DNA of 64,000 nucleotides, from positions 5,708 to 69,707 of the forward strand of contig JAZSRF010000045.1 of the NCBI GenBank assembly GCA_045538335.1. Direction: 5' to 3'. The notes beneath the pieces were generated by a model. It saw nothing but the letters and a program-made list of their open reading frames with translations, was not told the origin of the DNA and did no database searches. A program made the position numbers and the translations under genes. Every line of letters starts with the position of its first letter. The stretch's first letter is position 1. The DNA is from Clostridia bacterium. GTDB taxonomy: Bacteria; Bacillota; Clostridia; TANB77; CAG-465. Positions 2,411 through 42,094 of the stretch are shown one piece after another.

Positions 2411-3991
2411 ATGAACGGTTTAAAAACTACTATTTTGCTCATCGTCGCTATTGTTTTAGATGCCTTTATGTGGTATCTCTGGCAACCGCCTATGAACTTC
2501 TCGTCGCCTAGTTTCTGGTGGTTCGTAATCGTGTCTGTAGGGATTATCGCTTGCGCTTTGTTTATAGCCGGTTGGGAAGATGATGTTTTATTACCCGCAG
2601 GAATTGCCGGTGCCATTGTTGCCATTGCTTTTATTATTTGGCTTATCGGAGCGTGCTTCAGCGGCGGGCTTTTCAATGCCAAATTAATGTCCAATCTTCT
2701 GGATGTGGAGACCACCTCCTTTGAAGCAGAGTTTGAAAACGTTAACTGGAATACTGTTCCGCAAATCGACCACGCAAGCTCCGCCATTTTGGGTGCTAGA
2801 AAAATGGGTACTCTTGTAGAGGAAGTCTCCCAGTACAATGTAGCGGAAAATTACACATTGATTAATCAAAACGGTAAACCTACCCGTGTTGCTCCCTTGG
2901 TTTATGCGAGCGTATTCAAATACTTTAACAATAAATACCAAGGAATCCCCGGTTACATTACCGTAAACTGTGTGGAAAAGACTGCAGAGTTTGTTCGGTT
3001 GGAAAAAGGTATTCAGTATTCGCCTTCTGCTTGCTTTAGCAAAGACCTCAATCGTCATCTGAGAAGCCAGTTTCCAGGTATGCTCTTCGATGAATTTTCA
3101 TTCGAAATTGATGACGAAGGAGTACCTTACTGGGTTGTTCCCACTTATACTTATTCTTGTGGTATTGGTGGTGGCAAGACTCCTAACGGCTGTATTGTTT
3201 GCGACCCCATTACTGGTTCGGCAGATTTCTACGCTATGGATAAAATTCCCGAATGGATCGACCACGCTGTAGATGATGACACTGTCGTAAACCTTATCAA
3301 ATGGTGGGGCAAATACCAAGATGGTTGGTGGAACAGTTGGGTTAGCCAAAGAAACGTAAAACAGGCTACTGAAGGTAACAATTTTGTAACCATCGGCAAC
3401 GATGTATACCTGTACACTGGTATTACCTCCGTTGCTATGGACGAATCCAACATTGGCTTTATTTTGGTAAACCAGCGAACTGCAGAAGCAAGATACTTTG
3501 AAATGCCTTCTGCCGAAGAATACTCTGCTATGGATTCTGCAAAAGGCCAGGTACAGCATCTGAACTACACTTCTACCTTCCCTATTCTTATCAACCTTAA
3601 CGGAGAGGCTGTTTACTATCTGTCTTTGAAAGATGCTGCGGGATTAGTTAAAATGTATGCTCTCGTATCTGTAGAGGATATTCAGAAGCTTGCCGTAACA
3701 GATTCTACTTTAGGTATTGAATACCTGGTAGAGCAGTATAATAAATCTTCTAGCTCTATCCAAATTTCTGGCGGCGAGACCAAAACTATCACCTTTGATA
3801 TCGCAAACATTTATACTTGTGTAATCGAAGGTAACACACAATACTACTTTGAAGACGCAAACGGTAATGTTTATATGACAGATATTACCAAGAGTGTCAA
3901 ACTTCCTGTATATTCTGTAGGAGATAAAGTTACTATTACCTATTCTTCCACGAATGTAGAAAACTACTTCAGTATTGTAAACATTGAGTAA
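2411..3991 (+). CDS. hypothetical polytopic membrane protein (3 N-terminal TM helices + large Cys-containing extracytoplasmic domain)
   Basis: Hydrophobic N-terminal segments (ILLIVAIVLDAFMWYLW, FWWFVIVSVGIIACALFIAGW, IAGAIVAIAFIIWLIGACF). GC is ~45-50% against a ~28-30% background. Strong RBS. Confidence 0.55.
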   Translation: MNGLKTTILLIVAIVLDAFMWYLWQPPMNFSSPSFWWFVIVSVGIIACALFIAGWEDDVLLPAGIAGAIVAIAFIIWLIGACFSGGLFNAKLMSNLLDVETTSFEAEFENVNWNTVPQIDHASSAILGARKMGTLVEEVSQYNVAENYTLINQNGKPTRVAPLVYASVFKYFNNKYQGIPGYITVNCVEKTAEFVRLEKGIQYSPSACFSKDLNRHLRSQFPGMLFDEFSFEIDDEGVPYWVVPTYTYSCGIGGGKTPNGCIVCDPITGSADFYAMDKIPEWIDHAVDDDTVVNLIKWWGKYQDGWWNSWVSQRNVKQATEGNNFVTIGNDVYLYTGITSVAMDESNIGFILVNQRTAEARYFEMPSAEEYSAMDSAKGQVQHLNYTSTFPILINLNGEAVYYLSLKDAAGLVKMYALVSVEDIQKLAVTDSTLGIEYLVEQYNKSSSSIQISGGETKTITFDIANIYTCVIEGNTQYYFEDANGNVYMTDITKSVKLPVYSVGDKVTITYSSTNVENYFSIVNIE

Positions 3992-4032
3992 TCCTACAAA
4001 AGAGGAGATTCATTTGAATCTCCTCTTCCTTT

Positions 4033-4359
4033 TTATTTCTTTGAAACGCTTTCAAAATACGCCTTCATAAATGCTTCCGGTGTAGATTTATTCTTCGATT
4101 CCCTCCACATATTGTCTCCCATATCCCAGAACAAATACGGATATTTTAAGGTCTCATATGCTTCTTCGCCATTCTCAAAAACGAGTTTTAATACGTCCTG
4201 TTTGCCTCGGTATTCCTTAAGAAGAGTTATCTCAAAGAACGAGTTGTTAAAACCAGGAATACAGTGTCTGTCCTCCCTTCTTGCAAATATACTAACACCC
4301 GAAAAATCAAACTTGTACCGAAAGTACACGCCGTAAAACTTTACATCATAAATACTCAT
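4033..4359 (-). CDS. hypothetical single-domain protein, paralog of the N-terminal domain of 1596..2249
   Basis: MSIYDVKFYGVYF...LLKEYRGKQDVLKLVFENGEEAYETLKYP aligns with both repeats of the 217-aa protein. Confidence 0.5.
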   Translation of the reverse strand: MSIYDVKFYGVYFRYKFDFSGVSIFARREDRHCIPGFNNSFFEITLLKEYRGKQDVLKLVFENGEEAYETLKYPYLFWDMGDNMWRESKNKSTPEAFMKAYFESVSKK

Positions 4360-4423
4360 TATGATTCCTCCTATTATTTTATTTTACAGTCGCATTATAT
4401 CACAAAAATATGGATTAGACAAG

Positions 4424-7929: not shown

Positions 7930-7998
7930 TTTCTCCCGCTAATTATTTTAATAGTTTTGCAGCGAACACTCTACTTAACTCATTATTATTTAGCTTTA

Positions 7999-8631
7999 CT
8001 ACCATTCCGACCATTCTGGCCATCCTTGTACATCTTTAACAGAATCTTTTTTTGGCTGTTCTTTGTTTTCAACAATCTGATTATTCATACTTTCTTGATC
8101 ATCATATACTTTCGTCGACAAATCACTTGCTAAAGTTGCTTGCTTCTCTTTTTTTATATCAAACTTTTTTTCAAGCTTCTGTTCTGCGCATAATGGTAAC
8201 TGTATACTTTTTAACTTTGCATGTTTTATAGTGTCGCACATTAACTCAAAAACCGCTTCTCTATTTTCTAACAGTGTGTCAACAATTAAGCATGTTATTC
8301 CTCTATCAGAATACACTTCCGGGTAAGCATCATTTAAGTCAAAGTTATCATACATTGTTATTTCACAATTATATTTACTATCTATTAATTTTTTCGCTAT
8401 AGCCATAGCCATTTTCCTAGAATATTCATCATTTAAATTATATGAAATATATGGCGTACCAGTGTCTCCAGCACAACAAGCATGTGAGAGAAACCCTTTA
8501 TTATATCCTTGGTTTAATAATCTCTCTAGTTGTTTCGAACCTTCTGCCCATTCATGAAATGCTTTTTTACGTTCCTTCGCTGTTAATGTTTTTATGTCTA
8601 TAGGTTTTCCTGTATTGTACTTACTTTGCAA
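7999..8631 (-). CDS. hypothetical protein
   Basis: 210-aa ORF with RBS GGGGGAA upstream; no recognisable motif. Confidence 0.4.
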   Translation of the reverse strand: MQSKYNTGKPIDIKTLTAKERKKAFHEWAEGSKQLERLLNQGYNKGFLSHACCAGDTGTPYISYNLNDEYSRKMAMAIAKKLIDSKYNCEITMYDNFDLNDAYPEVYSDRGITCLIVDTLLENREAVFELMCDTIKHAKLKSIQLPLCAEQKLEKKFDIKKEKQATLASDLSTKVYDDQESMNNQIVENKEQPKKDSVKDVQGWPEWSEW

Positions 8632-8655
8632 AGTAATTCCCCCTTGTTATCCAGA

Positions 8656-10020
8656 TCAGTTATTTGTATACTTGATTACATATTCTTTAAATTTATCTCC
8701 ACGTTCTTCAAAGTTTTTAAACACTCCATAGCTTGCTGCTGCAGGAGACATTAAACATATTGTTCCTTTTTTAGTGATTTGAGTTGCAAGCTCTACTGCT
8801 TTTTCTAAATCTTCAGCTAGAACATAATTAGAATTTGTTCCTGTTTTCTTTAATTCCTCATAGATTTTCTTACCGCTATCATACATTAAGATAACATTTT
8901 CTACTTTACCTTGTGATAGGAATTCTATCAAAGATGAATAATGTATTCCTCTATCCATTCCTCCAACTATTACTGTATTTATATTTGGAATACTTTCTAC
9001 AGCAGAAATAACTGCTTCTGGAATAGTAGCAATAGAATCGTCTATATATGTTACTCCATCATACACACCAATATTTTCTAATCTATGTGCAAGCGGTTTA
9101 AATTCCATAATTGCTTTTGATATTTTTTCATCTTCTACGTCTAAAAGTTTGGCAACCGTTGTTGCAACCGCAATGTTATAACAGTTATGTGCACCGCGTA
9201 TATTTTCGTTTTTAGGCTCTCTCACGGTTATAATATCTCCGTGAATGTTAATACGAACTTGCTCTTCCGAATAACAGCAAGACTCTTGTTCTTCTGTTTC
9301 TTCTTTGCCAACACCAATATGATGTTGCTTTAATAGTCTATCGCCATTTAACACTTCTTTTTCAGCCTCATTAAATATGTAATAATCATTTTCGTCTTGG
9401 TATTTGTATATATTTCTTTTTGCCTCTTTATACTCTTCATAACCCTTGTAATGGTCTAAGTGGTCTTCATACATATTAAGAAGTACTGCAATATGAGGGC
9501 TACAGTCTACAAACTCCAATTGATGTGACGAAAGCTCATACACATAATAATCTGTTGTGTTATATGTTTCCATTTCTTCAAAAGCCGGAAGGCCAATGTT
9601 CCCAACAAGAAGCGTGTTGTATTTTTCTTTAAGCATTGAATATATTAATGAAGATGTTGTACTCTTACCTTTTGTTCCAGTAATTCCAATTATTTTATCT
9701 TTGCCATACTTTAAAAAAAGTTCCGTTTGAGATGTCACTTTATCTCTTAAACCTGTTAAATCTACATCTTTAAAAGACTGTCCTGGTGTTTTCATTATAA
9801 CATCATAGTCTTTCATTGCTTCTAAATAATTAGCCCCAGTATGAAGAGTTACATCTGAATTTAAAATTTCTTCGTCTGTTATCTCTTTAATATCTGCAAT
9901 ACCTACTTTACAGTCGATATTATTATTTTTTATAAATCTATATGTACTTCTTCCTTCACGGCCAAAGCCTAGGATAAGCACACTTTTACCTGTCAACTCT
10001 TGTATTATTTTTTCTTTCAC
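8656..10020 (-). CDS. murD: UDP-N-acetylmuramoyl-L-alanine--glutamate ligase (MurD; possibly L-Glu-adding MurD2 type)
   Basis: N-terminal Rossmann ILGFGREG, Mur-ligase P-loop GITGTKGKST, and an internal insertion (GVGKEETEEQESCCYSEEQVRINIHG). Confidence 0.8.
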   Translation of the reverse strand: MKEKIIQELTGKSVLILGFGREGRSTYRFIKNNNIDCKVGIADIKEITDEEILNSDVTLHTGANYLEAMKDYDVIMKTPGQSFKDVDLTGLRDKVTSQTELFLKYGKDKIIGITGTKGKSTTSSLIYSMLKEKYNTLLVGNIGLPAFEEMETYNTTDYYVYELSSHQLEFVDCSPHIAVLLNMYEDHLDHYKGYEEYKEAKRNIYKYQDENDYYIFNEAEKEVLNGDRLLKQHHIGVGKEETEEQESCCYSEEQVRINIHGDIITVREPKNENIRGAHNCYNIAVATTVAKLLDVEDEKISKAIMEFKPLAHRLENIGVYDGVTYIDDSIATIPEAVISAVESIPNINTVIVGGMDRGIHYSSLIEFLSQGKVENVILMYDSGKKIYEELKKTGTNSNYVLAEDLEKAVELATQITKKGTICLMSPAAASYGVFKNFEERGDKFKEYVIKYTNN

Positions 10021-10031
10021 AAAAGTTCCTC

Positions 10032-11390
10032 CTACTCAATATATTCTCTTAAAGCTTTTTTAAATTCTTCTGTCAGATTGTTATCCTCATTCCAATCTTT
10101 TTTTGCCTCTTCTATTGCTTGTTCTAAATTCGCTATATTTGGTTTAAAGTCTTTTAATAGCACTGGTAATTCTTTACCCTCTTTATTTAATCTTTCAACT
10201 ATCATATTAAGACTTAAGTTTATTTCATCTTTAGTTCCAACACATTCAAATGGTTTGTCGTAATCTGGATAAACAAGACCATTAAATATATCTCTTAAAG
10301 ATTCATTATTTAGCATATCTGTTTTAAAAATTCTAGCCATATCCTCATCTGTTAAGAATGCTTTAACCATAATATATACGTATAAACACTTAGGACAATT
10401 TTCACACCATATGTCTTGTTTAGAACCTACGTTACAACTTTTGAATACTTCAAAATATTTATCTGTTTTAACAAACGCCCTAACTATTTGCCATTCACTT
10501 AACGCTCTAAGTAAACTAAAATAGCTTGGTCCATTTTCACAAATATGTTTTTCCACATATTCTCTAAAGTCATTTTCAAATTCTATACTCTTAGAATATT
10601 GGTGGTTTATATTTGTACCACTAACATTTGCTTCGTTTGCACTAGCCTCATTAGATAATACTATGTTTTTTCTACCAAGTATTACAGCTGAAGCGTAAGA
10701 AGAAAATGCAAGTATTGCCGAAAACGGTGTATGCCCATTCAAAAAGCCTTGTTTATTTAATTCTAATAATCTTGAATCCAAAGTTCTCTTTGGCGCATAA
10801 ATCTTACCATCATATCCGCCAACAATGGCAGAATCTCTTGATGCTCCTCTTGGATTTACAATATAACACATATTATCCATATTTTTTAATACTTCTAAAG
10901 ATAACGAAGAGTCTTTGCCACCACCCACAGGCACAAGATTTCCTGTAAGGTCCTCTGTTAATTCTGTTTTTTTACTTGCGGTGTTTTCTACTTTAATTTC
11001 TAGAAATGTATCTATGTTCATTGCTTCTACAATATTATTTCTGTAGAAAAATTCACCAAGTCCATTAATGTATAACTTTTTATACCATGCTATCTGTTCC
11101 TCATTCAAATTTCCACATTTTACAACAAGAGTAGGTGAACAAGTAGACTTAAGGTATGACACAACTTCAACCATACCAAGATTAAATATTGTGTTTTCTA
11201 ATATCTTTCTTGAACTTGCATCTAACACTCTTCCTTGTGGCTTTGGAAAACTCCATGTTGGTTTAAACTCTGTTAAACCTGGCACAACAAAGTTAAATGA
11301 TACTTCAAAACTGTTTTCAGTTTCTGTAATATCATAAGAATTGTATTCAAATATTGGATATTTTTCTCTTAACTCATTAAATTTATCCAT
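10032..11390 (-). CDS. PP-loop (adenine-nucleotide alpha-hydrolase superfamily) protein coupled to murD; candidate MurL-like UDP-MurNAc-L-Ala-L-Glu epimerase
   Basis: PP-loop PVGGGKDSS, and a Cys cluster CENCPKC. Lies 11 nt downstream of murD in the same operon. Confidence 0.45.
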   Translation of the reverse strand: MDKFNELREKYPIFEYNSYDITETENSFEVSFNFVVPGLTEFKPTWSFPKPQGRVLDASSRKILENTIFNLGMVEVVSYLKSTCSPTLVVKCGNLNEEQIAWYKKLYINGLGEFFYRNNIVEAMNIDTFLEIKVENTASKKTELTEDLTGNLVPVGGGKDSSLSLEVLKNMDNMCYIVNPRGASRDSAIVGGYDGKIYAPKRTLDSRLLELNKQGFLNGHTPFSAILAFSSYASAVILGRKNIVLSNEASANEANVSGTNINHQYSKSIEFENDFREYVEKHICENGPSYFSLLRALSEWQIVRAFVKTDKYFEVFKSCNVGSKQDIWCENCPKCLYVYIMVKAFLTDEDMARIFKTDMLNNESLRDIFNGLVYPDYDKPFECVGTKDEINLSLNMIVERLNKEGKELPVLLKDFKPNIANLEQAIEEAKKDWNEDNNLTEEFKKALREYIE

Positions 11391-11391
11391 A

Positions 11392-11988
11392 TTACATTTC
11401 CCTTCTATTTTCCATTGCCTTTATTAGTGTAATTTCATCTGTATATTCTAAATCTCCGCCTACTGGTATTCCGTGTGCAATTCTAGACACTTTTATACCT
11501 GGTATTGTTTTAATAATTCTAGAAATATACATTGCAGTAGCTTCCCCTTCTATTGTTGGATTAGTCGCAAGAATTACTTCTTTCACATTTTCATCTGAAA
11601 GCCTAGATACTAATTCTTTTATTTTTATATCTTGCGCAGATATATTGTTCATAGGAGAAATAGCTCCATGAAGTACGTGGTATAATCCTTTGTACTCGTG
11701 TGTTTTTTCCATAGCAACTACATCTTTTACATTCTCTACTACGCATATAACACTTGTGTCTCTTTTAGAATTACCACAAATCTCACATTTGTCTGCTTCA
11801 GATAAGTTGTAGCAAGTCGAACAAAATCTCACTTTCTGTTTAGCTTCAAGCAAAGCTTCAGACATTGTTTTAGCTACTTCTGTATCTGATTCTAATATAT
11901 AGAATGCTAAACGAACTGCTGTCTTGTGACCAATTCCTGGCAACTTTTCAAATTCTCCTATTAATTTTTTAACTGATTCTGAATACAT
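11392..11988 (-). CDS. recR: recombination protein RecR
   Basis: C4 zinc finger CSTCYNLSEADKCEICGN, Toprim domain, 198 aa. Confidence 0.9.
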   Translation of the reverse strand: MYSESVKKLIGEFEKLPGIGHKTAVRLAFYILESDTEVAKTMSEALLEAKQKVRFCSTCYNLSEADKCEICGNSKRDTSVICVVENVKDVVAMEKTHEYKGLYHVLHGAISPMNNISAQDIKIKELVSRLSDENVKEVILATNPTIEGEATAMYISRIIKTIPGIKVSRIAHGIPVGGDLEYTDEITLIKAMENRREM

Positions 11989-11995
11989 AACCTAC

Positions 11996-12325
11996 CTACA
12001 TCAACCCTGGAATGTTTAATCCTCCAAGTCCTTCTTGCATCATATCATCTGCTTTTCTTAATGCTTCATTTACTGCAGTAAGAACGAGGTCTTGTAGCAT
12101 TTCTACATCATCTGGGTCTACTACTTCTTTTTTAATTATTATTTCTTTTATTTCTTTCGCACCTGTTGCTTTTACTATAACAGCTCCCCCACCAACGGAA
12201 GTTTCAAACTCCGTGTTTGCTGCTTCCTCTTGTTTCTTTTGCATTTCTGCTTGCATTTTTTGTGCCTGTCTCATTAAGTTTTGCATATTTCCCATTCCGC
12301 CTGGGAATCCTCCAAATTTAGCCAT
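11996..12325 (-). CDS. ybaB: YbaB/EbfC nucleoid-associated protein
   Basis: 109 aa with G-rich N-terminus and conserved core; positioned between dnaX and recR as is canonical. Confidence 0.85.
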
Positions 12326-32045: not shown

Positions 32046-32120
32046 ATGGTGCCCCCTGCGAGAATCGAACCCACAACTAGCCCTTAGGAGGGGCTTATTA
32101 TATCCATTTAACTAAGGGGA
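32046..32120 (-). tRNA. tRNA-Arg (anticodon CCU)
   Basis: Manual fold: acceptor GTCCCCT/AGGGGGC, D-arm GTTA-AATGGATA-TAAT, anticodon stem AGCCC/GGGCT with loop CTCCTAA, T-loop TTCGATT, encoded CCA. Confidence 0.85.
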
Positions 32121-32208
32121 CATTGCCTCTCAATTATACACAAGATTTAATTGTTTTTCAATATTTCATTGATTTTTTTGTTTTAGTAGTGTATAATAAT
32201 TCCCACAA

Positions 32209-32247
32209 GCACCAATAGCTCAACTGGATAGAGCGTCAGACTACGAA
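32209..32247 (+). other. 5' half (acceptor-5' strand, D-arm, anticodon 5' stem and loop) of a disrupted tRNA-Arg(ACG) gene; attL junction
   Basis: GCACCAATAGCTCAACTGGATAGAGCGTCAGACTACGAA is tRNA-like up to anticodon-loop position 38, then diverges. A TGTATAAT -10 lies just upstream. It pairs perfectly with the 3' half at 40498..40544. Confidence 0.7.
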
Positions 32248-32311
32248 CAGAACGCTCAAAACCTTATACCTATTGATAATGCTGTTTTTCAGGGTTTGGG
32301 AATTTTTCATT

Positions 32312-32328
32312 CCCCAGTTTTACCCCAA
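32312..32328. repeat. 17-bp direct repeat CCCCAGTTTTACCCCAA (left-arm copy; candidate Int arm-type site)
   Basis: Identical 17-mer recurs at 40309..40325 near the other end of the element. Each copy is next to a short palindrome (GGGAATttttcATTCCC / TTCCCAAAATTGGGGAA). Confidence 0.5.
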
Positions 32329-32353
32329 AAAACTAAAATACAATTTAACATAT

Positions 32354-32430
32354 GCGGCAGTAGCTCAATTGGATAGAGTAACGGACTACGAATCCGTCGG
32401 TTGGGGGTTCAAATCCCTTCTGCCGCACCA
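32354..32430 (+). tRNA. tRNA-Arg (anticodon ACG), intact, carried just inside the element
   Basis: Acceptor GCGGCAG/CTGCCGC, anticodon stem ACGGA/TCCGT with loop CTACGAA, T-loop GGTTCAAATCC, encoded CCA; 77 nt. Confidence 0.9.
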
Positions 32431-32465
32431 CTTTTACAGCTTTTAGTTTACAGAAGGCTGTATTT

Positions 32466-33747
32466 TTATCCCCAAATTTTATTAATTTCTTCTCTTTTTC
32501 TTGTTAATGTAACGTGTATATAATACTTCTTTGTTGTAGATGAGTCAGAGTGCCCCATTAGTTCTTTTAACACAACATCAGGCACACCTCTTTCACTGCA
32601 TAATGTTGCAAAACTATGCCTTAAACCATACAAGGTTACTTTCCCCAATTTGTACTTTTTAATAAATGTTGGTATTTTATTTGTTAATCTTTCAGATACA
32701 TAAGGTCCTCCGTTTTCATTTAGAAAAACATATTCTTCATCCGACCATTTTATATTATTCCTTTTTGCCTTTTCTTTTTTGCTTTCTTTTAACTTAATTA
32801 ACATTTTAAATAACCTTGGCGACATTGGTATAATTCTATAACTTTCTTTAGTTTTAAGACTGCTATCTGCTTTCTTATAGCCAATAGCATTAAAGTTCTC
32901 ATCAAATATTTGAATTTCTTTATATGCATTTTCTACACATATAGTCTCATCTTTAAAATTTACACATTTCCATTTTAAGCCACAACCGTTCTTCTGGTCT
33001 CATACCAGTTTGAATTATGGTAGCAAAGAGCAGCGCCCAATCTCTACCATCTTGTTCGGCACAATCTAACCACTTTACTTGTTCTTCAGATGTTAAATAA
33101 CTAATCTCTTTTCTTCTCTTGGGTGGTAACACAATATCTACAATAGGGTTAATACTAATTAAATTTTGCTGTCTTGCAAAGTCCATTATTTGTTTCATTG
33201 TAATGTAATTATCTCTTGCCATTTTAGGTGCATTTCTATTATCTATGTAATTTTGAAACATCTCTTTTGTAATTTCATTTATTAAGTATTCTCCAAATGC
33301 AGGTATTAAATTAGACTTAACATTGTATACATATTGTTCAAAAGTTTTACTGCTTAATCTTTTTGCTCTGTTAGGCATTGTTTCTTGTCTTCTTTTTTCC
33401 AGCCAATTAAAAGCAACCTTATTAAACTTATTACACTCTTTTGCTTTAGAAATAATTTCTTGTGTAACATCCTCATTGTTATATTCTTTTAGTTTTCTCA
33501 AACTTTTAGAACATGTCCTATTTGTTTCTTCTTCATTTAACCCTTTGCCTTGTGATGCCCTAATGTATGCCTCAGCTATTGCTTCACCAAGTTTTCTTTT
33601 TGCCTCCTTTTCTGAAACAGAACTAAACCTAGATAATCTATAGTTTTTTATACCATCAATATCTAAAGTTATTCTTGCTTCATAACCATTATTTCTTTTT
33701 CTAACGCTTATAGTGCCCTTTTTAGCCCTTTCTTTTATTTTCTTCAT
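32466..33747 (-). pseudogene. int: tyrosine site-specific integrase, disrupted by a frameshift near 32950..32990
   Basis: The N-terminal ORF (32953..33747) ends inside box I (...TGMRPEERLW). The C-terminal ORF (32466..32825) carries LRHSFATL...HSD...Y catalytic residues in a different frame (lower coordinate mod 3 = 0 vs 1). The alternative frame reads through as ...GLKWKCVNFKDET.... Confidence 0.7.
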
Positions 33748-33844
33748 ACAATTCCCTCCTAATATAAAGAAAATGTTTAAATTAGCGTTTAGAAAGGTAA
33801 ATCATAGTTATTATAACATCTCTTTATATGTAAAGTCTAATCTT

Positions 33845-34033
33845 TTAATAATAATATTTGCCGTAATTTTCGTGAATCCACTTTTCAAGATCTTGCTTAT
33901 TAATAATTACTTTTCGCTTAAATCTTATACAAGGGAATCCATCAACTTTAATTAGTTCTAGCATTAAGTTTCTTCCAATGCCCAACATCTTTCTTGCTTC
34001 CTCAATGCTAATACATACCTTTTCGTCTTGCAT
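33845..34033 (-). CDS. xis: excisionase/AlpA-like small HTH DNA-binding protein
   Basis: 62 aa from ATG 34033 (RBS AAGGAGG): MQDEKVCISIEEARKMLGIGRNLMLELIKVDGFP. Directly upstream of int. Confidence 0.5.
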   Translation of the reverse strand: MQDEKVCISIEEARKMLGIGRNLMLELIKVDGFPCIRFKRKVIINKQDLEKWIHENYGKYYY

Positions 34034-34140
34034 ACTATACCTCCTTCTTCTTAAATTGAAAGGATTTGTTATATAAATAATCTGTCCACTTAATATAACT
34101 AAAAATAACAAATGTAAAATTTAAAATTATATATTTTTTA

Positions 34141-34540
34141 CTTTGCTTATTACTTGCCCCTTCACTTACTATATATCCTTCAAACACTAAAAATCGGACA
34201 AGATTTATAAAAATAGCGACTTTTTACAAAATTTCACATAATCTTCTTTGTTTTTAGTATTAATTTTTATATTCTCTCATTACTTAACAGTCCTCCAAAC
34301 ATATAAATAATTAGAAGATTTACAAAAATAACACAATTTTCTTTATTTGTTATAATTAGTTTTATCCCCTTTCACTTCCCTATCGATTGAAACAGTGAAA
34401 GTCGGACAAAATATTAAAAATTTATTTAATTTTTTATAAATTAGATTATTTACCCCTTCACTTATATAAACAGTTGAAACACCAAAAATCTGACAAAATT
34501 TATAAAAACCGTGCTTTTTCACACAATTTCACACAAAAAT
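34141..34540. repeat. iteron-like imperfect direct repeats (CCCCTTCACTTA ... AAAAATC(G/T)GACAA(G/A)ATTTATAAAAA ... ATTTCACA) x ~2.5 in AT-rich non-coding DNA
   Basis: Copy 1 is 34156..34238; a partial copy with the hairpin CTTTCACT..AGTGAAAG is 34365..34420; copy 3 is 34455..34534. The two ~50-bp units are ~80% identical. Confidence 0.5.
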
Positions 34541-35244
34541 ACCCTTATAATTGGAAATATCAATGTAATAAAAAAGCAGTATTAAAACCACTCAAACAAA
34601 ACAAATAACTTTTGATATCTGTTTTATACATTAACTTTTGTTCATTAAATAAGAAGAAGTACTTTATTAAGTATATCAACTTTCACTTAAAATAAAGAAA
34701 AGCTTTAAAAAGGGAACATATAATATAATTAATTTAGTTTATGATGCAATACTAGATAACTTGACCTTTCCTAATGGCAAAAACCAAAGTGTTTATTCTC
34801 TACGAACCATGAAGCTGACAATAGTTATCCATAAGAAATAAAAATGTATAAATTTGAATATTACTTAAATTGTAAACTCAAAGATCAATTTCCTAAAGTT
34901 ACAGCTAACAAAAGAGTTAATTTTTAAAAAGTTCTAAAAGTTTAAAGATAAAGCAAAAAATCTATTATCAAAACAAAACTATCATATAAGAAGCAAACGA
35001 CACCAAGAGGTAAAGTATTCTTTTGCGCAAGCAAAATTGAATAAAGAAATTAAAAATCTTACTAAGATAACTTAAAACCAGATACATAATGGTACATTAT
35101 TTGTATGCATTTGACACCGAGATATGTTTAATAGTATGATAACCACACTATCTATAGTATAACTGAAAATGAGAAATCAAGCAATATTGTTTAAAAATTT
35201 GGGCGCCCTAAAATTATTTTAGGGTGCCCTCTTTGTTTTGAGAC

Positions 35245-35418
35245 CTATTCAAGTGCAAAACTAGCAAAATACATATCCTTGCCCGTGCAACGCTGTCTGC
35301 ACTTGGAAGTGCTCAATACACGAAACTTCTTTCCTTGCGTCTTTGCATCATTACGTTGAGCTTTGATATAAGCCCTACGCTCTTTAGGAGAATCAAACCA
35401 CGTTGACCAATTTTTCAT
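35245..35418 (-). CDS. small hypothetical protein (57 aa) with its own RBS and terminator
   Basis: GGAGGTG RBS; MKNWSTWFDSPKERRAYIKAQRND...; downstream hairpin GGGCGCCCTAAAAT/ATTTTAGGGTGCCC at 35204..35232. Confidence 0.3.
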   Translation of the reverse strand: MKNWSTWFDSPKERRAYIKAQRNDAKTQGKKFRVLSTSKCRQRCTGKDMYFASFALE

Positions 35419-35445
35419 TAGTGCACCTCCAATATGAGTCTTCTT

Positions 35446-35661
35446 CTACAATTCAAAAAATTCTTTTCGTTCTTCCGCAGTTATATTAAAAAGTCCCCCG
35501 TGTCCATCTTTAACTTCCCAGACCCCATCTTCGCAAGAACCTGATTTCCCAGGGAACTTATCCTTGACGCCGAGAATTGTTCCAGATGTAATCTGAACAC
35601 CCGTCTTTGTAACATAATCTTTATTGCATTTTATTTGCCATAAATTTCTGCAACAAGTCAT
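35446..35661 (-). CDS. small Cys-rich hypothetical protein (71 aa from ATG 35661)
   Basis: RBS AAGGAGG + ATG giving MTCCRNLWQIKCNKDY...SGSCEDGVWEV. The longer ORF call lacks an RBS. Confidence 0.35.
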   Translation of the reverse strand: MTCCRNLWQIKCNKDYVTKTGVQITSGTILGVKDKFPGKSGSCEDGVWEVKDGHGGLFNITAEERKEFFEL

Positions 35662-36180
35662 ATTTTTAATCCTCCTTATAATTTGTTGATGTTTATTCGA
35701 CAAGGTACTACTGCTATACAATACAGTGCCTCCTTAAAGTCGTACAAAACCTAAATGCTTTTATTATTTCATTATAGTAAAATGAAATTCAATTAAACTG
35801 ACACCTATATTATAACATATATTTTATGTAAAGTCAAATAAGAATACGCCGAGACATTTTCTACTTATTATGTTAATATTTCCAAATCACAGTCGAGCAA
35901 CTGTATATATTAGTATAGTATCACTAACTATCAGTACTATATATAAGGTCAATAATAAATGCTATATTTTAATGCAACTTATTTGTTTTTTCATTAGATT
36001 AATTTTTAAACCCGTTATTTCTTAATTTATTTATACCTAATACAGGAATAGATGCAAGACACATCGGCTCACATCTTAGAGGCACAGCCACTAAACTTGT
36101 ATTACAATTTCAATTTTGTATTACATTTGTAATACGATAACCAAGTTGGTCATTTTAAGTAGAATGCTACATATAAGCAA

Positions 36181-36232
36181 AACTACAGTATCTCTTGTTT
36201 AAGAGTAACTGTAGTTTTATTTTATTTATCCA
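36181..36232. terminator. hairpin AAAACTACAGT...ACTGTAGTTTT with T-rich flank at 3' end of the defence operon
   Basis: 11-bp inverted repeat overlapping the stop of the RloB-like gene. Confidence 0.4.
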
Positions 36233-36908
36233 TCATTTCTTCTAATAACAATCCCACATTAGAGCCCAATTCAGTCTTTAAATATTTAACATCTTCACAA
36301 AAAGACTTTTCATTTTCTATTGCTGTTCTAATATTAGCTTTAAATTTTTTGAAATCAATATTTCTTTTATTACAACCAAATATTTGATTTAACTTAACCT
36401 CTAAAAACCTTCTGTTATTGCTTATTTTTTCATTATTTAACATATCCTCTTTGCTTATGTTAAAAACTTCTTTACTATGCAATACAAGAAAAAATTCAAA
36501 AGTAGGATTTGTTACAAAAGGGAAATATCCACATCTACTAACACCCTCTAAAAACTCATCATATTGATTGTCTTTAAAATTTTGTGGATCCCTATCGACT
36601 ATAAAACATACCTTGTCTATTTCTTTACTGTACACAAATTTATCTTCATCTAAAGATTTATTAAAGTTTTCTAATTTTTTAAGCGGATGGCTTTGTCCAT
36701 ATTCGCTTTCTTCATTTTCTACCGGAACAATCTCTATCAAATCTTTTATTCCTATTTCTTCCGAATTTTCTTTTACACCTTGAAAGTATTGTAATTCTGT
36801 TTTATCTCCTTCAGAAACAATAAAATATTTAGACTTAGGTTCTTTACTTCCTTTTCTTCTTTCTAGGTTTAATCCATTTTCACTAATTATTCTCATCTGA
36901 TAAATCAC
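36222..36908 (-). CDS. RloB-like (AbiLii-type, Toprim/OLD-related) defence protein
   Basis: Toprim-like signatures YFIVSEGDKTELQYF and FIVDRDPQ. Overlaps the preceding ATPase gene by 26 nt (operon). Confidence 0.6.
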   Translation of the reverse strand: MIYQMRIISENGLNLERRKGSKEPKSKYFIVSEGDKTELQYFQGVKENSEEIGIKDLIEIVPVENEESEYGQSHPLKKLENFNKSLDEDKFVYSKEIDKVCFIVDRDPQNFKDNQYDEFLEGVSRCGYFPFVTNPTFEFFLVLHSKEVFNISKEDMLNNEKISNNRRFLEVKLNQIFGCNKRNIDFKKFKANIRTAIENEKSFCEDVKYLKTELGSNVGLLLEEMMDK

Positions 36909-38283
36909 CTACCGGAAATACAGTTTCAAAAATTGGTACTCCACCATAACGGCCTTCTAAATATGCTTTATCAATCTTTTTATCAAATCTCTCATTATAA
37001 TCTTCTAAAGAATATAACTCTGTTTGACCATATTTTTGTCTATTTGCAAACCAAACCTCATCTCTCCTTAATAAGTCAAAATCTAAAAGCCTAGATTCAT
37101 GTGTAGTAACTATTAATTGTGTATTCTTATCTTCAGAGTTAGCTAAAAATCTTTTTACAAATTCAAACGTTAATTGTGGATGCAAACATCTATCTACTTC
37201 ATCTATTAAATAAACTTTCTCTTTATTTTTATTCATCAAAATTTCAATTAGATCGAATAATCTTTGTGTACCATCGGATTCCTCAGAAAATAAATATTCA
37301 CTTTCATTATTTTTATGCTTTAATACTATCTTTTGAACTTGAATACCAGCTAATTCTGCTTTTCTCAAGATATACATTTCCTTATTTATTCTAATATTTG
37401 CTTGTTGAACAATTATTTTGTTGTATTTCTTCAAATTATCCATAAAAGCTTTTTCTATAGTATCAATCATATTCTTTAGAATATCTGGTGGTATGTTGTC
37501 TTTTAATTCTTGCAAACTTGATTTTACAACTTTACATTTGCTGATTCCCGTTCCAAATGTAGAAATTATATCATTTATTTTTTCAATATTTTCTTCTGTA
37601 GAAAAATACGGTGTATTATCTAAACCTACTTGTGGAAAAATGATAGTTAAAGTATTATTAAACCAATTAAATAAATCTCTAAAAATACATACATTATTAT
37701 CTGGAAATTCTTTATACATTGTATCTTTGTTTTTATTCATAATGGTTAAAAATAATATATTATCTTGGCTCTTCATATCTGAATAATAAACGTTATTTCT
37801 ATTTATTATATCTTGGACATCATTAAAATATTAACTGTTTAATTCTATATTTTCATTTAGTTTTCTTGTATAAATAAGTATTTCCTTATTTTTATTTTTA
37901 TCCAACTCATATAGCCATTCTGCACGAATACTATTTTCTGATAATAGCATATCAAATCCATAAGCATAATATTTATCATTAATTTTTATTTCATATTCAA
38001 ATGAAGATATCTTATCCTTATTTGAATTGTTGATTCTGCAATATAGACTTGTGACATTAAATGCTACTCCTCTTAAAATAATGTTTTTCCCAAAATTAAT
38101 TGCTTTTAATAAATTAGATTTTCCGGATGCATTAGCCCCATATACCGCTGAAAATTTTAGTAATTTTAGTTTTTCATCGCTTACTAAGTGCGCTGCTTTA
38201 TTTTTTACAGCACCCGCTATCATAGAGAATTCTTGTTCTTCATTAAAAGATAAAAAATTTGAAACTTTAAATCTTATTAACAT
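36883..38283 (-). pseudogene. ABC-type AAA_21/AAA_15 ATPase (AbiLi/AriA-like) interrupted by a single in-frame TAA (37831..37833)
   Basis: N-terminal part has Walker A FSAVYGANASGKSNLLKAI. C-terminal part has ABC signature ESDGTQRLF, Walker B VYLIDEVDRCLHP and H-loop VTTHE. Both ORFs share one frame. The 18 codons between stop and next ATG have no further stops. Confidence 0.7.
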
Positions 38284-38491
38284 ATTCTTCCTCTCCTTTT
38301 ATATTATTTTATGTGATAAAATCGTTTTTGTCAATAATGTTTTATGTAATTTAGAGCAATTTTATGAATTTGTAGGTGATTTTTTCACTTTAGCGTTGTT
38401 TTATTAACTATTTTGTATTTACACAATATTTTTATAGCATTGATTTTAATTATATCTGTTGATATAATTAATTTGTACAGGAGGTGTACTT

Positions 38492-38902
38492 ATGATTTTA
38501 TTAAGTGAAATAATCGCTGGGTTAGAAACAGTTAGTGATATCACTGATGTTTACTACAATCCCGAAACAGAAGAAACATTTTTATCTGATATCGGAGATT
38601 TTGAGGATTTAGATGAAGATGAATTAGATGAACTTTTTGAAAAATCTATAATGTTGCCTACAAGATATGATATAAACGAATATGGAATGATGGAAGAATT
38701 TATAGAAACCAAAAACAACAATACTCTTTTATATAATCAACTATGCATTGCAATTAATGGTCCTGGTGCATTTAGAAGATTCAAGGATACTTGTATTAAC
38801 TTTGATATTATTGACGAATGGTGCAAATTTAGAGATGCTAAATATAGAGAACTTGCGATAGAATGGTGTAACGAACACAATATCAAATATAAGGAGGACT
38901 AG
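38492..38902 (+). CDS. hypothetical acidic protein (element cargo)
   Basis: 136 aa with RBS AGGAGGTG, run of acidic residues (DFEDLDEDELDELFE) and motif GPGAFRRFKD. Confidence 0.45.
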   Translation: MILLSEIIAGLETVSDITDVYYNPETEETFLSDIGDFEDLDEDELDELFEKSIMLPTRYDINEYGMMEEFIETKNNNTLLYNQLCIAINGPGAFRRFKDTCINFDIIDEWCKFRDAKYRELAIEWCNEHNIKYKED

Positions 38903-38904
38903 CC

Positions 38905-39633
38905 ATGTTAAAAGCAAAATTAACAGACAATTTAGCAGGACTTACTATTAGTGGTGATCACGAAGATTTAGACAAGCTTTACGATGCTATAAATTATTTA
39001 ATTAAAGGCGAACCCAATAGTATACAAGAATATACTATGCAAAACCATTTGTATGGCTTTTTATATGATGTAAGACACGCTTATCAAGGTGATAGAGAGA
39101 TAGAATTAATAGATAACTGGGTTAGCGAAGACGTAAGAAAATGGCATGGCTTTAAAAAAGCTGAGATTACAGATAAAAACGCATATTTTAGTTTTAACTA
39201 CCCTTTACCAGATATGTTACTAGATATGGTCTTAATTCAACACTTTATCAGAAAAGTACATAAGAAAGAAAATGACATTTACAATCCATACATAAACATT
39301 GTAAATTTATTTTATAGTATTGCATTAGATCCGTTATATCAAGTACTAACACCAAACAAATTTAATACTATAAAGAACGGCCTATTGGAATCAGTTGTTC
39401 CAGTAAAATCTTTCTGTCCACAATGGTTTCAAATGATAACTTGTGATTATTTAAAATGGCCTAAAGAAAAACGATTGAAAAATCTGCCTAAGATAGCAGA
39501 TGAAATATATAATTTTATGGAATATGAGGATTATGTTAAAATAAAAATAGATATGGATAAATATTGTAAAGAAAACAATTGTACACTAGATGATGTTACT
39601 ATGGGCGAATATCCAACCGAAATAATTTGGTAA
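38905..39633 (+). CDS. hypothetical protein (element cargo), translationally coupled to 38492..38902
   Basis: 242 aa, RBS AAGGAGG, start 2 nt after upstream stop. Confidence 0.45.
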   Translation: MLKAKLTDNLAGLTISGDHEDLDKLYDAINYLIKGEPNSIQEYTMQNHLYGFLYDVRHAYQGDREIELIDNWVSEDVRKWHGFKKAEITDKNAYFSFNYPLPDMLLDMVLIQHFIRKVHKKENDIYNPYINIVNLFYSIALDPLYQVLTPNKFNTIKNGLLESVVPVKSFCPQWFQMITCDYLKWPKEKRLKNLPKIADEIYNFMEYEDYVKIKIDMDKYCKENNCTLDDVTMGEYPTEIIW

Positions 39634-39664
39634 ACAAAAACAATATTCTGTCTAGTATTTTTTA

Positions 39665-39715
39665 GAGAAATCTGGAGTTGCACTCCAAATTTCTCTAAAT
39701 TTTTGTTTTTTTCTT
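39665..39715 (+). terminator. Rho-independent terminator (TTTAGAGAAAT-CTGGAGTTGCACTCCA-AATTTCTCTAAA + T-tract)
   Basis: Nested inverted repeats followed by TTTTTGTTTTTTTC after the 242-aa gene. Confidence 0.55.
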
Positions 39716-39784
39716 TATATGCATTTTTGTTAATATAATAACTTGTAATAATAATTTTATAGTATTTAATTTATATTATTATAT

Positions 39785-39873
39785 TCTACAATTTTGTATA
39801 TACCTTCTCTACATTTTTGTATAGTACCTATAGTCATTTTTGATAATACCCTCTCTACAAAATTGTAGAGAAG
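39785..39873. repeat. three copies of CTACA(A/T)TTTTGTA(T/G)A; third copy is a 16-bp palindrome TCTACAAAATTGTAGA
   Basis: Copies at 39785..39800, 39808..39824 and 39855..39870, immediately 3' of the HTH_36 replication-like gene. Confidence 0.45.
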
Positions 39874-39890
39874 TTGCCATTTAATCCCCT

Positions 39891-40244
39891 TTAGTACCCT
39901 GCATCTATATAATCATTATAATCTAATTCATAGTCTATATTTTTCTTACGAGTGAGCCTACTGTTATCTAGTAAGTATATCTTTCTTTTTGAATCCTCAC
40001 TATTTTTTACTATCTCTACTTCTAGATATCCCTCCTTAACAAGTTTGCTTATCCATCTAGATATTGTGTTTGGATCACAATTATATAATCTTGCGAAATA
40101 TTTGTTTCCTGCAAAACAATATCCCTTTTTATTTGTTAATGCTGTTATTTCACCATATAACAATTTTTGTCCATTATTTAGATTTTCATCATATCTTACC
40201 TTTGCAGGTATTATTGCATAGTAACTTGGTTTTATTTTTTCCAT
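39891..40244 (-). CDS. HTH_36 / phage replisome-organiser N-terminal-domain-like DNA-binding protein (candidate replication initiator)
   Basis: YYAIIPAKVRYDENLNNGQKLLYGEITALTNKKGYCFAGNKYFARLYNCDPNTISRWISKLVKEGYLEVE matches the winged-helix pattern of DnaD-like/replisome-organiser N-terminal domains. Confidence 0.5.
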   Translation of the reverse strand: MEKIKPSYYAIIPAKVRYDENLNNGQKLLYGEITALTNKKGYCFAGNKYFARLYNCDPNTISRWISKLVKEGYLEVEIVKNSEDSKRKIYLLDNSRLTRKKNIDYELDYNDYIDAGY

Positions 40245-40308
40245 ATATTTTTACCTTTGATTTACCTTTCCCAAAATTGGGGAATAAAATTTATTTGCTT
40301 ATACTATA

Positions 40309-40325
40309 CCCCAGTTTTACCCCAA
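40309..40325. repeat. 17-bp direct repeat CCCCAGTTTTACCCCAA (right-arm copy)
   Basis: Identical to 32312..32328. Confidence 0.5.
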
Positions 40326-40497
40326 TTTTTGTAATTTTTCTTAAACTAATTTAAACTTTTTCGTATTTTTTTAAATTAAAATAAATTTTTGTTTTATCAA
40401 AGGTAATAAGATTTTTTGCAGTATTTTCAACACTTGTAACGTTTTTTCTTGATTTTTCTAGTGCTTAATGATATACTCATTTTGACTATTGGTGTAC

Positions 40498-40544
40498 GAC
40501 TACGAATCTGAAGGTTGGGGGTTCGAGTCCCTTTTGGTGCACCA
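40498..40544 (+). other. 3' half (anticodon loop through CCA) of the disrupted tRNA-Arg(ACG) gene; attR junction
   Basis: GACTACGAATCTGAAGGTTGGGGGTTCGAGTCCCTTTTGGTGCACCA. The acceptor 3' strand TTGGTGC is the exact complement of GCACCAA at 32209. There is no local 5' partner. Confidence 0.7.
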
Positions 40545-40615: not shown

Positions 40616-41627
40616 TGTGAAGAAAATTATATATCTTTTTAAAAGAATATGTGAAATGGATTTCAAATCTATGTTTAAAACAGCAAGGCGTGTTGGAAAA
40701 GCTAATAAGGCATCATCTATTATAGTTTTGTTTGATATAATTCGTTGCGGAATAAAATATATGGCAGGGTATGTAGATTACGAAGTTTTTGGATTTTACA
40801 ACCTAACCAAAGAGCAAAGAGAAACAATTATAACAAGAGGCATTAATAATCGTTTTGTTGCAACACTAAACGACAAAGAATTAGCAAACACTTTAGATAA
40901 CAAGTTACTATTTAACAAAAGATTTAATGAGTTATTAAAAAGAGACTGGCTTAATTTAAAAGAAACTTCAAAAGAAGAATTTGCAAAGTTTCTTAAAGAC
41001 AAAACAAATATAATTGTTAAACCAGTAGACCAGGCATGCGGAAGAAACGTTGAGAAAATAAGCGTTAAAGAAATTAATGATATTAACAATTTATATGACA
41101 ACCTAATATCTAAAAAACAATATTTGGTAGAAGATTGCATTGTGCAACATCCTAAAATGTCTGAAATATATCCTAACGCAGTTAATACCCTAAGAATAGT
41201 TACTGTTACTAAAAACAATAAAGTTAACATTATGTTTAGAAGCATTCGCATGGGCAATTCAGGTAATGTTGTAGACAATTTCAATCACGGCGGATTATTT
41301 ACAACAATAGAAGAAAATGGAGTTATTCAAAAACCAGCTGTAGACAAACTTGGTAATATCTATGATAGTCATCCATTTACAAATACACCGCTTATAGGAT
41401 ATGAAATCCCTTTATTTAAACAAGCAATCGAATTCGTAAAAACAATGGCAATTTCCATACCAGAAGTTGGATACGTCGGTTGGGATATCGCTATTACAGA
41501 AAACGGGCCTGTTGTTGTAGAAGCAAATCCATTCCCAGGCCACGATATATATCAATCAAAAATACACATGAAGGCAGACGGAACAGGACTTAGAAAAGAT
41601 TTTGAAAAAATAATATATGAAGACTAG
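40616..41627 (+). CDS. ATP-grasp family protein (sugar-transfer-associated ATP-grasp type)
   Basis: ATP-grasp fold signatures (IIVKPVDQACGRNVEKI, EVGYVGWDIAITENGPVVVEANPFPG). Likely GTG start at 40616 after RBS AGGGGG. Confidence 0.55.
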
Positions 41628-42094
41628 CTCTTGCTAGTCTTCTTTTTTTTCCTTAATTCCTTAAAGAATTCTTTTATTAATGTTTCACAATCCTCTTTAC
41701 AGATTCCTTGTTCAAATTCTACTTTGTGATTAGATTTTATCCCAAAGGCATTAACTACACTTGTTACTGTTCCATATTTTTCATCACACGCTCCGAAATA
41801 CACTTTTCTAATCCTCGATTGTACTATCGCACCAGAACACATCAGACATGGCTCAACCGTCACATATAAATCACAATTTTCAAGTCTAAAATTATTTAAC
41901 TTTTTACACGCCTTATCTATAGCAATTATTTCAGCATGTTTCAAACTGTTTTGTTTGCTTTCACGCAAATTATATCCTCTAGATATAATCTTTCCACCCT
42001 TTACTATTACAGCACCTATAGGCACTTCGTCTTTTTTCCTTGCCTTTATAGCCTCTTTTATAGCCTCTTTCATAAACTTTTCTTGTTCATTCAT
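41624..42094 (-). CDS. tadA: tRNA-specific adenosine(34) deaminase
   Basis: CMP/dCMP deaminase zinc motifs HAEIIAI and PCLMCSGAI; 156 aa. Confidence 0.85.
   Translation of the reverse strand: MNEQEKFMKEAIKEAIKARKKDEVPIGAVIVKGGKIISRGYNLRESKQNSLKHAEIIAIDKACKKLNNFRLENCDLYVTVEPCLMCSGAIVQSRIRKVYFGACDEKYGTVTSVVNAFGIKSNHKVEFEQGICKEDCETLIKEFFKELRKKKKTSKS

Follow-up and report, generated by a model that had tools for sequence, protein, structure and literature searches.

AbiL, in the account given in PMC13064643, is an abortive-infection system of the Lactococcus lactis plasmid pND861 (Deng et al., 1999, as cited there), and in Lactococcus it blocks infection after phage transcription (PMC13064643). 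The abortive-infection phenotype is known only for this lactococcal system (PMC13064643). AbiL has been placed together with PARIS among systems pairing an ABC ATPase with a TOPRIM protein (PMC11464382, PMC13064643). In PARIS, trigger binding is followed by release of AriB and cleavage of tRNA-Lys (PMC11464382), and AbiLii shows no significant sequence similarity to AriB and superposes poorly on it (PMC13064643). Expressed in E. coli, the AbiLii of F. nucleatum is toxic and its AbiLi has no neutralising effect; lactococcal AbiLii is non-toxic (PMC3985639). RloA and RloB are introduced in PMC13064643 as 'restriction-linked ORFs' of Campylobacter type I restriction-modification (R-M) loci (Miller et al., 2005, as cited there).

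Here we analyse an AbiL-type gene pair in a 64,000-nucleotide stretch of clostridial DNA, referred to as the window. Our preferred reading, to which we give a probability of about 80%, is that the pair is an AbiL operon on an island that splits a tRNA gene and that its ATPase gene, abiLi, was killed by a recent nonsense mutation, K151*.

An ABC ATPase gene interrupted by one in-frame stop codon

The abiLi frame translates into 467 codons containing one internal stop and a terminal TAG (Table 1). The internal stop at codon 151 is the sole interruption of a 466-codon ABC-ATPase frame, and the 18 codons that lead from it to the next ATG (37776) contain no stop and can be aligned to homologues. 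The deposited assembly annotates the two pieces as separate proteins of 150 aa (P0241) and 297 aa (P0045). The first-pass annotation had instead taken the two ORFs as the N- and C-terminal parts of one ABC-type ATPase separated by nothing but this TAA, and translation, alignment and profile searches all agree with it. The two parts fall on adjoining stretches of the same models: in Pfam AAA_21 the N-terminal part covers profile positions 1-109 (2.7e-12) and the C-terminal part 130-304 (6.6e-17), and in the PADLOC AbiLi model PDLC02335 they cover 49-143 (1.8e-31) and 144-290 (2.5e-47). Pfam AAA_15 also matches. The ATPase motifs quoted in that annotation are all present, namely the Walker A motif GANASGKSNLLKAI (residues 49-62, core GANASGKS 49-56), the signature SDGTQRLF (336-343; SDGTQR 336-341), the Walker B motif LIDEVDRCLHP (359-369; YLIDEVD 358-364) and the H-loop TTHE (393-396; H395). 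They follow the order of an ABC ATPase (Walker A, signature, Walker B/D-loop, H-loop) and are divided by the stop between the two ORFs. Since the joined frame is up to 81% identical to intact 466-aa proteins, a single full-length frame arising by chance can be dismissed.

TAA terminates 20 of the 37 long ORFs of the window, where it is the commonest genuine stop, and is therefore a normal stop codon in this organism. The base that follows the premature stop is T, and TAAT is a strong terminator context in bacteria. We looked for a Shine-Dalgarno sequence upstream of ATG 37776 and found none. Both a reassignment of TAA under an alternative code and a conserved recoding site were considered and rejected on the same grounds, namely the regular use of TAA as a stop and the presence of AAA at this codon in an orthologous locus (L083, described below), which speaks against a conserved recoding signal. 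With a GC content of 25% and 190 of its 466 codons one substitution away from a stop, abiLi would be expected to decay by nonsense mutation, an ordinary route for such a gene.

Table 1. Positions of the AbiL genes, their signals and the features of the carrier island in the window.
Feature	Position	Strand	Basis
Island carrying the AbiL module	32248..40506	.	9-bp repeats, excision; same site in L083
Host tRNA-Arg(ACG) 5' half, attL side	32209..32247	+	split tRNA
Host tRNA-Arg(ACG) 3' half, attR side	40507..40544	+	in-silico excision
Island-borne complete tRNA-Arg(ACG)	32354..32430	+	tRNA, replaces split host gene
Tyrosine integrase pseudogene, 264-aa + 119-aa ORFs	32466..33747	-	domains; frameshift, also in L083
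HTH_17 excisionase-like gene, 62 aa	33845..34033	-	profile match
Hairpin directly after the abiLii stop, then UUUU; likely operon terminator	36179..36218	-	dG -19.4 kcal/mol, z -4.4, 0/200 shuffles fold as well
abiLii, RloB-family gene, 224 aa, own AGGTGA Shine-Dalgarno	36222..36896	-	Pfam, PADLOC, invariant residues, AlphaFold
abiLi pseudogene (AAA_21/AAA_15 ABC ATPase, 466 codons)	36883..38283	-	translation, HMM matches, homologue alignment
Premature TAA, codon 151	37831..37833	-	orthologue AAA (Lys); other homologues K, E, R or N
N-terminal 150-aa fragment with Walker A GANASGKS	37834..38283	-	translation, Pfam/PADLOC; annotated P0241
C-terminal open frame: helical insert, SDGTQR, YLIDE, TTHE	36883..37830	-	translation, Pfam/PADLOC; first ATG 37776; annotated P0045
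Shine-Dalgarno GGAGAGG, 6 nt before the abiLi ATG	38290..38296	-	sequence
Candidate sigma-70-like promoter TTGACA-17-TAAAAT upstream of abiLi	38306..38334	-	consensus match only, 11/12
HTH_36 protein, 117 aa, truncated Rep	39891..40244	-	N-terminal ~90 residues of phage/plasmid Rep profiles

The partner gene is an intact RloB homologue

Directly downstream of abiLi and overlapping it by 14 nt lies abiLii, which is intact. The first-pass annotation had recognised this gene as RloB/AbiLii with EG...E and DRD motifs; the gene itself was confirmed, with a change at its 5' end. The likely start is ATG 36896 rather than GTG 36908, as indicated by a Shine-Dalgarno sequence 8 nt upstream of the ATG and by agreement with the annotated protein (P0121) and its homologues. 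The 224-aa product matches Pfam RloB (PF13707) end to end (6.1e-25, profile 1-195 of 195) and the PADLOC AbiLii model PDLC02337 (6e-17). All 23 residues shared without exception by 45 homologues are preserved in it, among them E29-G30, E34, D101-R-D103, NPTFE, H140 and LGSNVG.

An AlphaFold model of the AbiLii protein (pLDDT 89) has a core of four strands in alternating beta/alpha order, with E29-G30 following strand 1 (22-28) and D101-R-D103 at the end of strand 3 (95-101). The TOPRIM layout consists of a conserved glutamate after strand 1 and a DxD motif after strand 3 in a four-stranded parallel sheet. The predicted arrangement of motifs and strands in AbiLii fits this classical layout and may be called TOPRIM-like. 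The earlier designation as Toprim-like is kept as a candidate one, supported by its motifs, by the order of strands in the model and by published work. It gained no confirmation from structure or profile comparison, as a Foldseek search of the model against the PDB returned nothing better than E 0.06 and no OLD or TOPRIM structure, and hhalign of the AbiLii profile against P2 Old gave no match. A BFVD search returned only an RloB-like phage protein. No Pfam Toprim model matched any of the 45 members of the AbiLii family, and no sequence relatives of either AbiLi or AbiLii were found in the PDB.

The pair is assigned to AbiL and the locus is probably a pseudo-system

By its profile matches, the pair is classed as an AbiL-type module of an ABC ATPase and an RloB protein. 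The locus has the two components by which PADLOC defines AbiL, an AbiLi match and an adjacent AbiLii/RloB match, and the pairing is conserved in relatives, but its genes are not both intact. Because of the premature TAA in abiLi, it is an AbiL pseudo-system and not a working one.

Of the earlier designation 'AbiL/PARIS-like', the AbiL part holds and the PARIS part does not. The intact orthologous ATPase (P0243) scores 271 bits (3.1e-81) on the PADLOC AbiLi model and far less, 102 bits (1e-29), on the AriA model PDLC02980. Even with a cut-off of E<=5, DUF4435 (PF14491) gave no match to AbiLii or to its 44 homologues, and PADLOC gave no AriB match at the pair. PARIS was rejected on the AriA score and the lack of DUF4435. 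The profile searches suggested earlier returned AAA_21, AAA_15, RloB and the PADLOC AbiLi and AbiLii models. We also rejected a housekeeping ABC system, the alternative against which the first-pass annotation had set its own reading: NCBIfam yields nothing beyond RecF P-loop matches below threshold, the best models are defence models, and relatives of the pair lie beside R-M or Wadjet-like genes.

The window pair belongs to a clade of gut Clostridia. Among plasmid and phage sequences, the best matches of this clade, from Bacillus and Fusobacterium, reach 39-41% identity, and an 'abortive phage resistance protein' of a lactococcal prophage shows ~26% identity to the clade.

The module is cargo of a decayed island that splits a tRNA-Arg gene

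The AbiL pair is carried by an island of 8,259 bp bounded by 9-bp direct repeats, GACTACGAA (32239-32247 and 40498-40506), which correspond to the anticodon loop of the host tRNA-Arg(ACG). The two halves of the host tRNA gene now lie 8 kb apart, and no tRNA is rebuilt at the island junction. Excision of the island in silico restores a canonical 77-nt tRNA-Arg(acg), and a complete replacement tRNA-Arg(ACG) is present on the island beside the integrase. The element accordingly has the features of a tRNA-integrated island, with repeats at its ends, a tyrosine integrase at one end and a target that is restored on excision, and its integrase gene is frameshifted. The frameshift lies just past the TGMRPEE box and the same split is found in L083. 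Of replication-initiator profiles 283-455 positions in length, the HTH_36 protein matches no more than the first ~90 residues. Further cargo includes a UPF0158 and DUF6904 pair, for which there is no PADLOC match. The first-pass annotation had regarded the module as cargo of an element and pairs of this kind as frequent in satellite/integrase hotspots. Carriage by an element is borne out by the tRNA island, but an active satellite is not, since a frameshifted integrase and a truncated Rep indicate that the island has been immobilised.

An orthologous island carries an intact abiLi

Using a 91%-identical AbiLii protein (P0122), we identified an 11.2-kb contig from another sample, L083, that is 94.5-95% identical to the window at the nucleotide level over both island arms and into both flanks. 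From this alignment, L083 evidently represents this island, inserted at an identical site in a related strain. In the variable segment of the island, L083 holds an 870-aa ABC_tran/FtsX gene. Its abiLi (P0243) is intact and encodes 466 aa, with AAA (Lys) at codon 151 where the window has TAA, which supplies the intact ATPase of this length that the first-pass annotation had proposed to look for at orthologous loci.

The two abiLi alleles differ at 32 codons, of which 25 are synonymous, six missense and one nonsense. As the differences are mainly synonymous, purifying selection acted on abiLi during nearly the whole divergence and the stop arose recently. The comparison points to a single A-to-T transversion (AAA to TAA) as the probable origin of K151*. 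Among the three options offered earlier for the stop, namely recent inactivation, a sequencing error or read-through, the AAA codon of L083 and the largely synonymous divergence favour recent inactivation and argue against conserved read-through. In the window lineage, two substitutions fall at otherwise conserved AbiLi positions, I163N and L363V, the latter in the D-loop at the residue after the Walker B glutamate; these numbers are too small to prove relaxed selection. The AbiLii proteins differ at 20 amino acids, all at variable positions. The integrase frameshift is shared with L083 and is therefore real and older than the abiLi stop.

Most homologues are uninterrupted and disrupted copies are of several kinds

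A search with the joined abiLi frame returned more than 5,000 relatives, of which the best 120 were examined. Almost all of these 120 are uninterrupted, 447-468 aa long and cover 98-100% of the query at identities of up to 81%; more than 100 homologues without interruption have lengths of 455-468 aa. The residue at position 151 is K, E, R or N. We further scanned GTDB with one genome per species and kept 80 loci, and added L001 and L082 to obtain a set of 82 for the analysis of gene neighbourhoods. The ATPase frame is uninterrupted in 79 of the 80 species-representative loci, the exception being an internal stop in L079. An RloB homologue lies immediately downstream of the ATPase gene in 71 of the 82 loci, and in the close clade the two genes overlap by 13-16 nt, matching the window. 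Apart from two weak integrase matches, none of the other island genes is found beside AbiL in these loci (L001-L082), indicating that the pair is a self-contained mobile module that moves independently of the island. The surroundings of relatives are typical of defence islands, with type I and type II R-M, Wadjet-like genes and SieB: L001 neighbours UvrD and Wadjet-like DUF2397/DUF2398/SbcC genes, L088 a cytosine methylase with Eco47II, and L089, a relative with 72% identity, lies directly beside type I R-M HsdS and HsdR genes and also has SieB.

Several copies are disrupted. In L001, which represents a lineage of 71% identity, abiLi is interrupted by a TAA of independent origin, in frame at codon 144 (GAA to TAA, E144*), and abiLii is intact; an intact twin of this abiLi (P0021) has GAA at that codon. 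In L082, abiLi is truncated at its N-terminus and RloB is broken. L085 is near-identical to the window and carries a 1-nt deletion in Walker A (frameshift, codon 54) on a short contig of 2.3x coverage that ends before abiLii. In L086 and L087, abiLi is intact and RloB, next to an IS605-family gene, is shortened to 56 aa. A clustering of the independent stops at codons 144 and 151 was judged not significant. Any lesion between about codons 113 and 169 leaves the same long 297-aa ORF and ranks high in the search, so that the search favours lesions of this kind and the closeness of the two codons carries no meaning.

Interpretation and alternative readings

In the intact state, which we infer from the layout of L083, one promoter would serve both genes, with abiLii starting 14 nt inside abiLi and the transcript ending at the terminal hairpin. 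By analogy with PARIS (PMC11464382), intact AbiLi may serve as infection sensor and regulator of AbiLii. Again by analogy, AbiLii might be released or activated on infection, cleave nucleic acids in a metal-dependent manner and abort the infection. In the genome studied here, the change of Lys-151 from AAA to TAA would end translation past Walker A, leaving out the helical insert, signature, Walker B, D-loop and H-loop. Lacking a functional ATPase, the AbiL system is most likely dead, and K151* would represent a further step of decay in an island already immobilised by its integrase frameshift and truncated Rep. Some residual function of the intact abiLii is possible.

It is unlikely that the TAA is an artefact of assembly, base calling or strain consensus and that the organism carries an intact, functional AbiL like that of L083. 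In its favour, the source is apparently a draft assembly, with a contig of 84.8 kb, from a lineage known mostly from metagenomes, the gene is one base away from its intact orthologue, and for the different lesion of L085, on its low-coverage contig, sequencing or assembly error is plausible. Substitution errors are, however, rare in consensus assemblies, and long genes elsewhere in the window, such as the ORFs of 1193 and 1244 aa, read without interruption. The reproduction of the integrase frameshift in an independent assembly and the presence of I163N and L363V in the window lineage likewise argue against an artefact. There is very little to recommend a split abiLi that is tolerated or functional, either because the stop is read through or suppressed or because the 150-aa piece reassembles with a re-initiated 297-aa piece. 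Such a reading could draw on the retention of every motif by the two halves, on the open codons between them and on L001, where an independent TAA seven codons away again accompanies an intact abiLii. Against this, the stop is not conserved, with AAA in the orthologue and GAA in the twin of L001; the TAAT context, the lack of a Shine-Dalgarno sequence before ATG 37776 and the status of TAA as the usual stop of the window speak for termination; and nearby hits at codons 144 and 151 are expected from the design of the search.

We likewise consider it highly improbable that, once the ATPase was lost, abiLii was kept for an independent role as a solitary nuclease or toxin. The complete set of invariant residues in abiLii, its own Shine-Dalgarno sequence and the confinement of its 20 differences to variable positions would suit such a role, as would the intact abiLii beside the nonsense abiLi of L001. 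The nonsense mutation, however, has probably left too little time for abiLii to show decay, RloB is almost always found beside an ATPase across the 82 loci, and L086 and L087 present the opposite case. Early truncations of abiLi (K151*, E144* in L001 and the codon-54 frameshift in L085) could conceivably reflect recurrent selection to disarm the sensor and keep RloB, as a solo effector or in a reversible off state, an idea to which we attach only slight probability. A more remote idea would link the tRNA-Arg(ACG) of the island to a putative tRNA-directed activity of AbiLii. The occurrence of AbiLi-null/AbiLii-intact genotypes (window, L001) and of the reverse (L086, L087) argues against a strict toxin-antitoxin dependence.

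The preferred reading, inactivation by a recent K151*, has practical consequences for annotation: the two ATPase ORFs ought to be joined into a single entry marked as a pseudogene, and the locus should be recorded as AbiL (inactive) and counted neither as a working defence system nor as PARIS. The intact L083 allele and K151* form a clean natural allele pair for a large, uncharacterised AbiL clade of gut Clostridia. The locus adds one more data point that AbiLi-null/AbiLii-intact genotypes are viable, which fits published evidence that AbiL is no simple toxin-antitoxin pair. The island is a tidy non-phage case from a Firmicute of tRNA-splitting integration with a replacement tRNA. Beyond annotation the locus matters little, being an unremarkable AbiL module, pseudogenised and carried by a decayed tRNA island.

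Comparison with known systems

The design of the island, a split host tRNA gene and a replacement tRNA, is shared with tRNA-dependent lysogeny of actinobacteriophages (Guerrero-Bustamante and Hatfull, 2024; PMC10865867). In contrast to those phages, the element described here is a non-phage island of 8.3 kb, found in a low-GC Firmicute, with an integrase that now carries a frameshift.

For the gene pair, OLD-family proteins (P2 Old, Gabija GajA) share the combination of an ABC ATPase with a TOPRIM-type acidic set (E ... DxD), and their ATPase models match weakly. They are single polypeptides, whereas the window has two genes, and neither hhalign nor Foldseek gave an OLD match. The shared logic with PARIS (AriA and AriB; PMC11464382) is an AAA_15/21 ATPase combined with a small nuclease-like effector, often on satellites or islands bearing an integrase, and AriA models give secondary matches to AbiLi (1e-29 for the intact orthologue). 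The sequence of trigger, AriB release and tRNA-Lys cleavage belongs to PARIS, however, and applies to AbiL by analogy only. With RloA/RloB, the relation is through AbiLii, which matches the whole PF13707 profile, and through the 72%-identical relative that adjoins HsdS and HsdR; the window pair itself has no R-M linkage and lies in a tRNA-integrated island. The closest likeness in gene content is to AbiL of pND861, with which the window pair shares its two-gene order, an AAA_15/21 ABC/Rad50-like ATPase followed by an RloB-type partner, and the PADLOC AbiLi and AbiLii models as best matches, the likeness being drawn through these models. Unlike the plasmid-borne pND861 system, the window pair is cargo of a chromosomal island and its ATPase gene is a nonsense pseudogene.

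The island integrase and probable replication protein
The tyrosine integrase of the island is broken into ORFs of 264 and 119 aa by a 1-nt frameshift directly past the TGMRPEE box. An identical frameshift is found in L083, a contig from another sample carrying the same island at the same site, and because this is an independent assembly, the lesion is a genuine, ancestral one. The island can no longer move. The HTH_36 protein aligns only with the N-terminal ~90 residues of phage and plasmid replication-initiator PHROG profiles (283-455 positions) and is probably a truncated Rep.

Window coordinates of island and flanking features
Feature	Position	Strand	Remark
tRNA-Arg(CCT)	32047-32121	-	
Split tRNA-Arg(ACG), core and island tRNA	32209-32247, 32354-32430, 40498-40544		
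Tyrosine integrase, split	32466-33747	-	frameshift near 32985
72-nt direct repeats	34170-34241, 34465-34536		
Variable cargo segment	34596-36025		
abiLii	36222-36896	-	RloB-family partner
abiLi	36883-38283	-	AbiL ABC ATPase
UPF0158 (136 aa) and DUF6904 (242 aa) gene pair	38492-39633	+	Pfam
HTH_36 protein, 117 aa	39891-40244	-	replication-initiator PHROG profile match
TadA-like deaminase	41624-42094	-	MafB19-deam / dCMP_cyt_deam_1

Variable and conserved cargo
A variable cargo segment lies between the excisionase gene and abiLii. In L083 (5594-8720) it holds an ABC_tran/FtsX gene of 870 aa, whereas in the window it spans 1.4 kb and its sole ORFs, of 57 and 91 aa, have no known function. Imperfect direct repeats (78% identical) occupy the adjoining non-coding stretch. 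Compared with L083, abiLii shows 92.3% nucleotide identity, with 20 missense and 27 synonymous codons, while abiLi is far less diverged at 97.7%. Divergence between the window and L083 climbs toward the variable segment, a pattern suggestive of a recombination boundary and not of decay.

The UPF0158/DUF6904 pair is oriented divergently to abiLi and is kept in L083. Its DUF6904 protein matches the Pfam family over its full length (1.8e-53), and neither PADLOC nor PHROG gave a match for the pair, which could represent further uncharacterised cargo or a defence pair.

Related loci contain other broken defence genes and long-form RloB partners
In L001, a related metagenomic locus, codon 144 of abiLi (2970-4370) is an independent in-frame TAA. 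Next to it, the Wadjet-like SbcC/JetC gene (7997-12083) is interrupted as well, its two parts of 148 aa and 1192 aa lying in different frames, so that one contig holds two broken defence genes. In two related loci (L086 and L087, 9388-10865), abiLi is intact and RloB is cut to a 56-aa remnant directly adjoining an IS605 OrfB/TnpB-like gene; here, loss struck the RloB partner and not the ATPase.

More distant relatives (L018-L081) encode RloB partners of ~310 aa, which in an alignment of AbiLii/RloB homologues (A2) carry an insertion, ~85-90 residues long, that separates the EG...SHP region from the DRD motif. Their genes begin just past the ATPase stop without overlap. These proteins are a separate long-form subfamily.

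The island interrupts a host tRNA-Arg gene and carries its own
The island interrupts the host tRNA-Arg(ACG) within the anticodon loop at a 9-bp core (GACTACGAA). Insertion leaves the host gene un-rebuilt, and in-silico excision of the island regains a canonical tRNA. The island contains a complete tRNA-Arg(ACG) of its own with a different acceptor stem, which may by now be the sole working copy at the locus. On the opposite strand, ~90 nt upstream of the split gene, lies tRNA-Arg(CCT), and the two form a small tRNA-Arg cluster at an integration hotspot. The TadA-like deaminase gene is located ~1.1 kb from the split gene; the substrate of bacterial TadA is tRNA-Arg(ACG). The combination of a split host tRNA and an island-borne complete tRNA-Arg(ACG) fits 'tRNA-dependent lysogeny' (PMC10865867), but the carrier here is a small non-phage island in a low-GC Firmicute.
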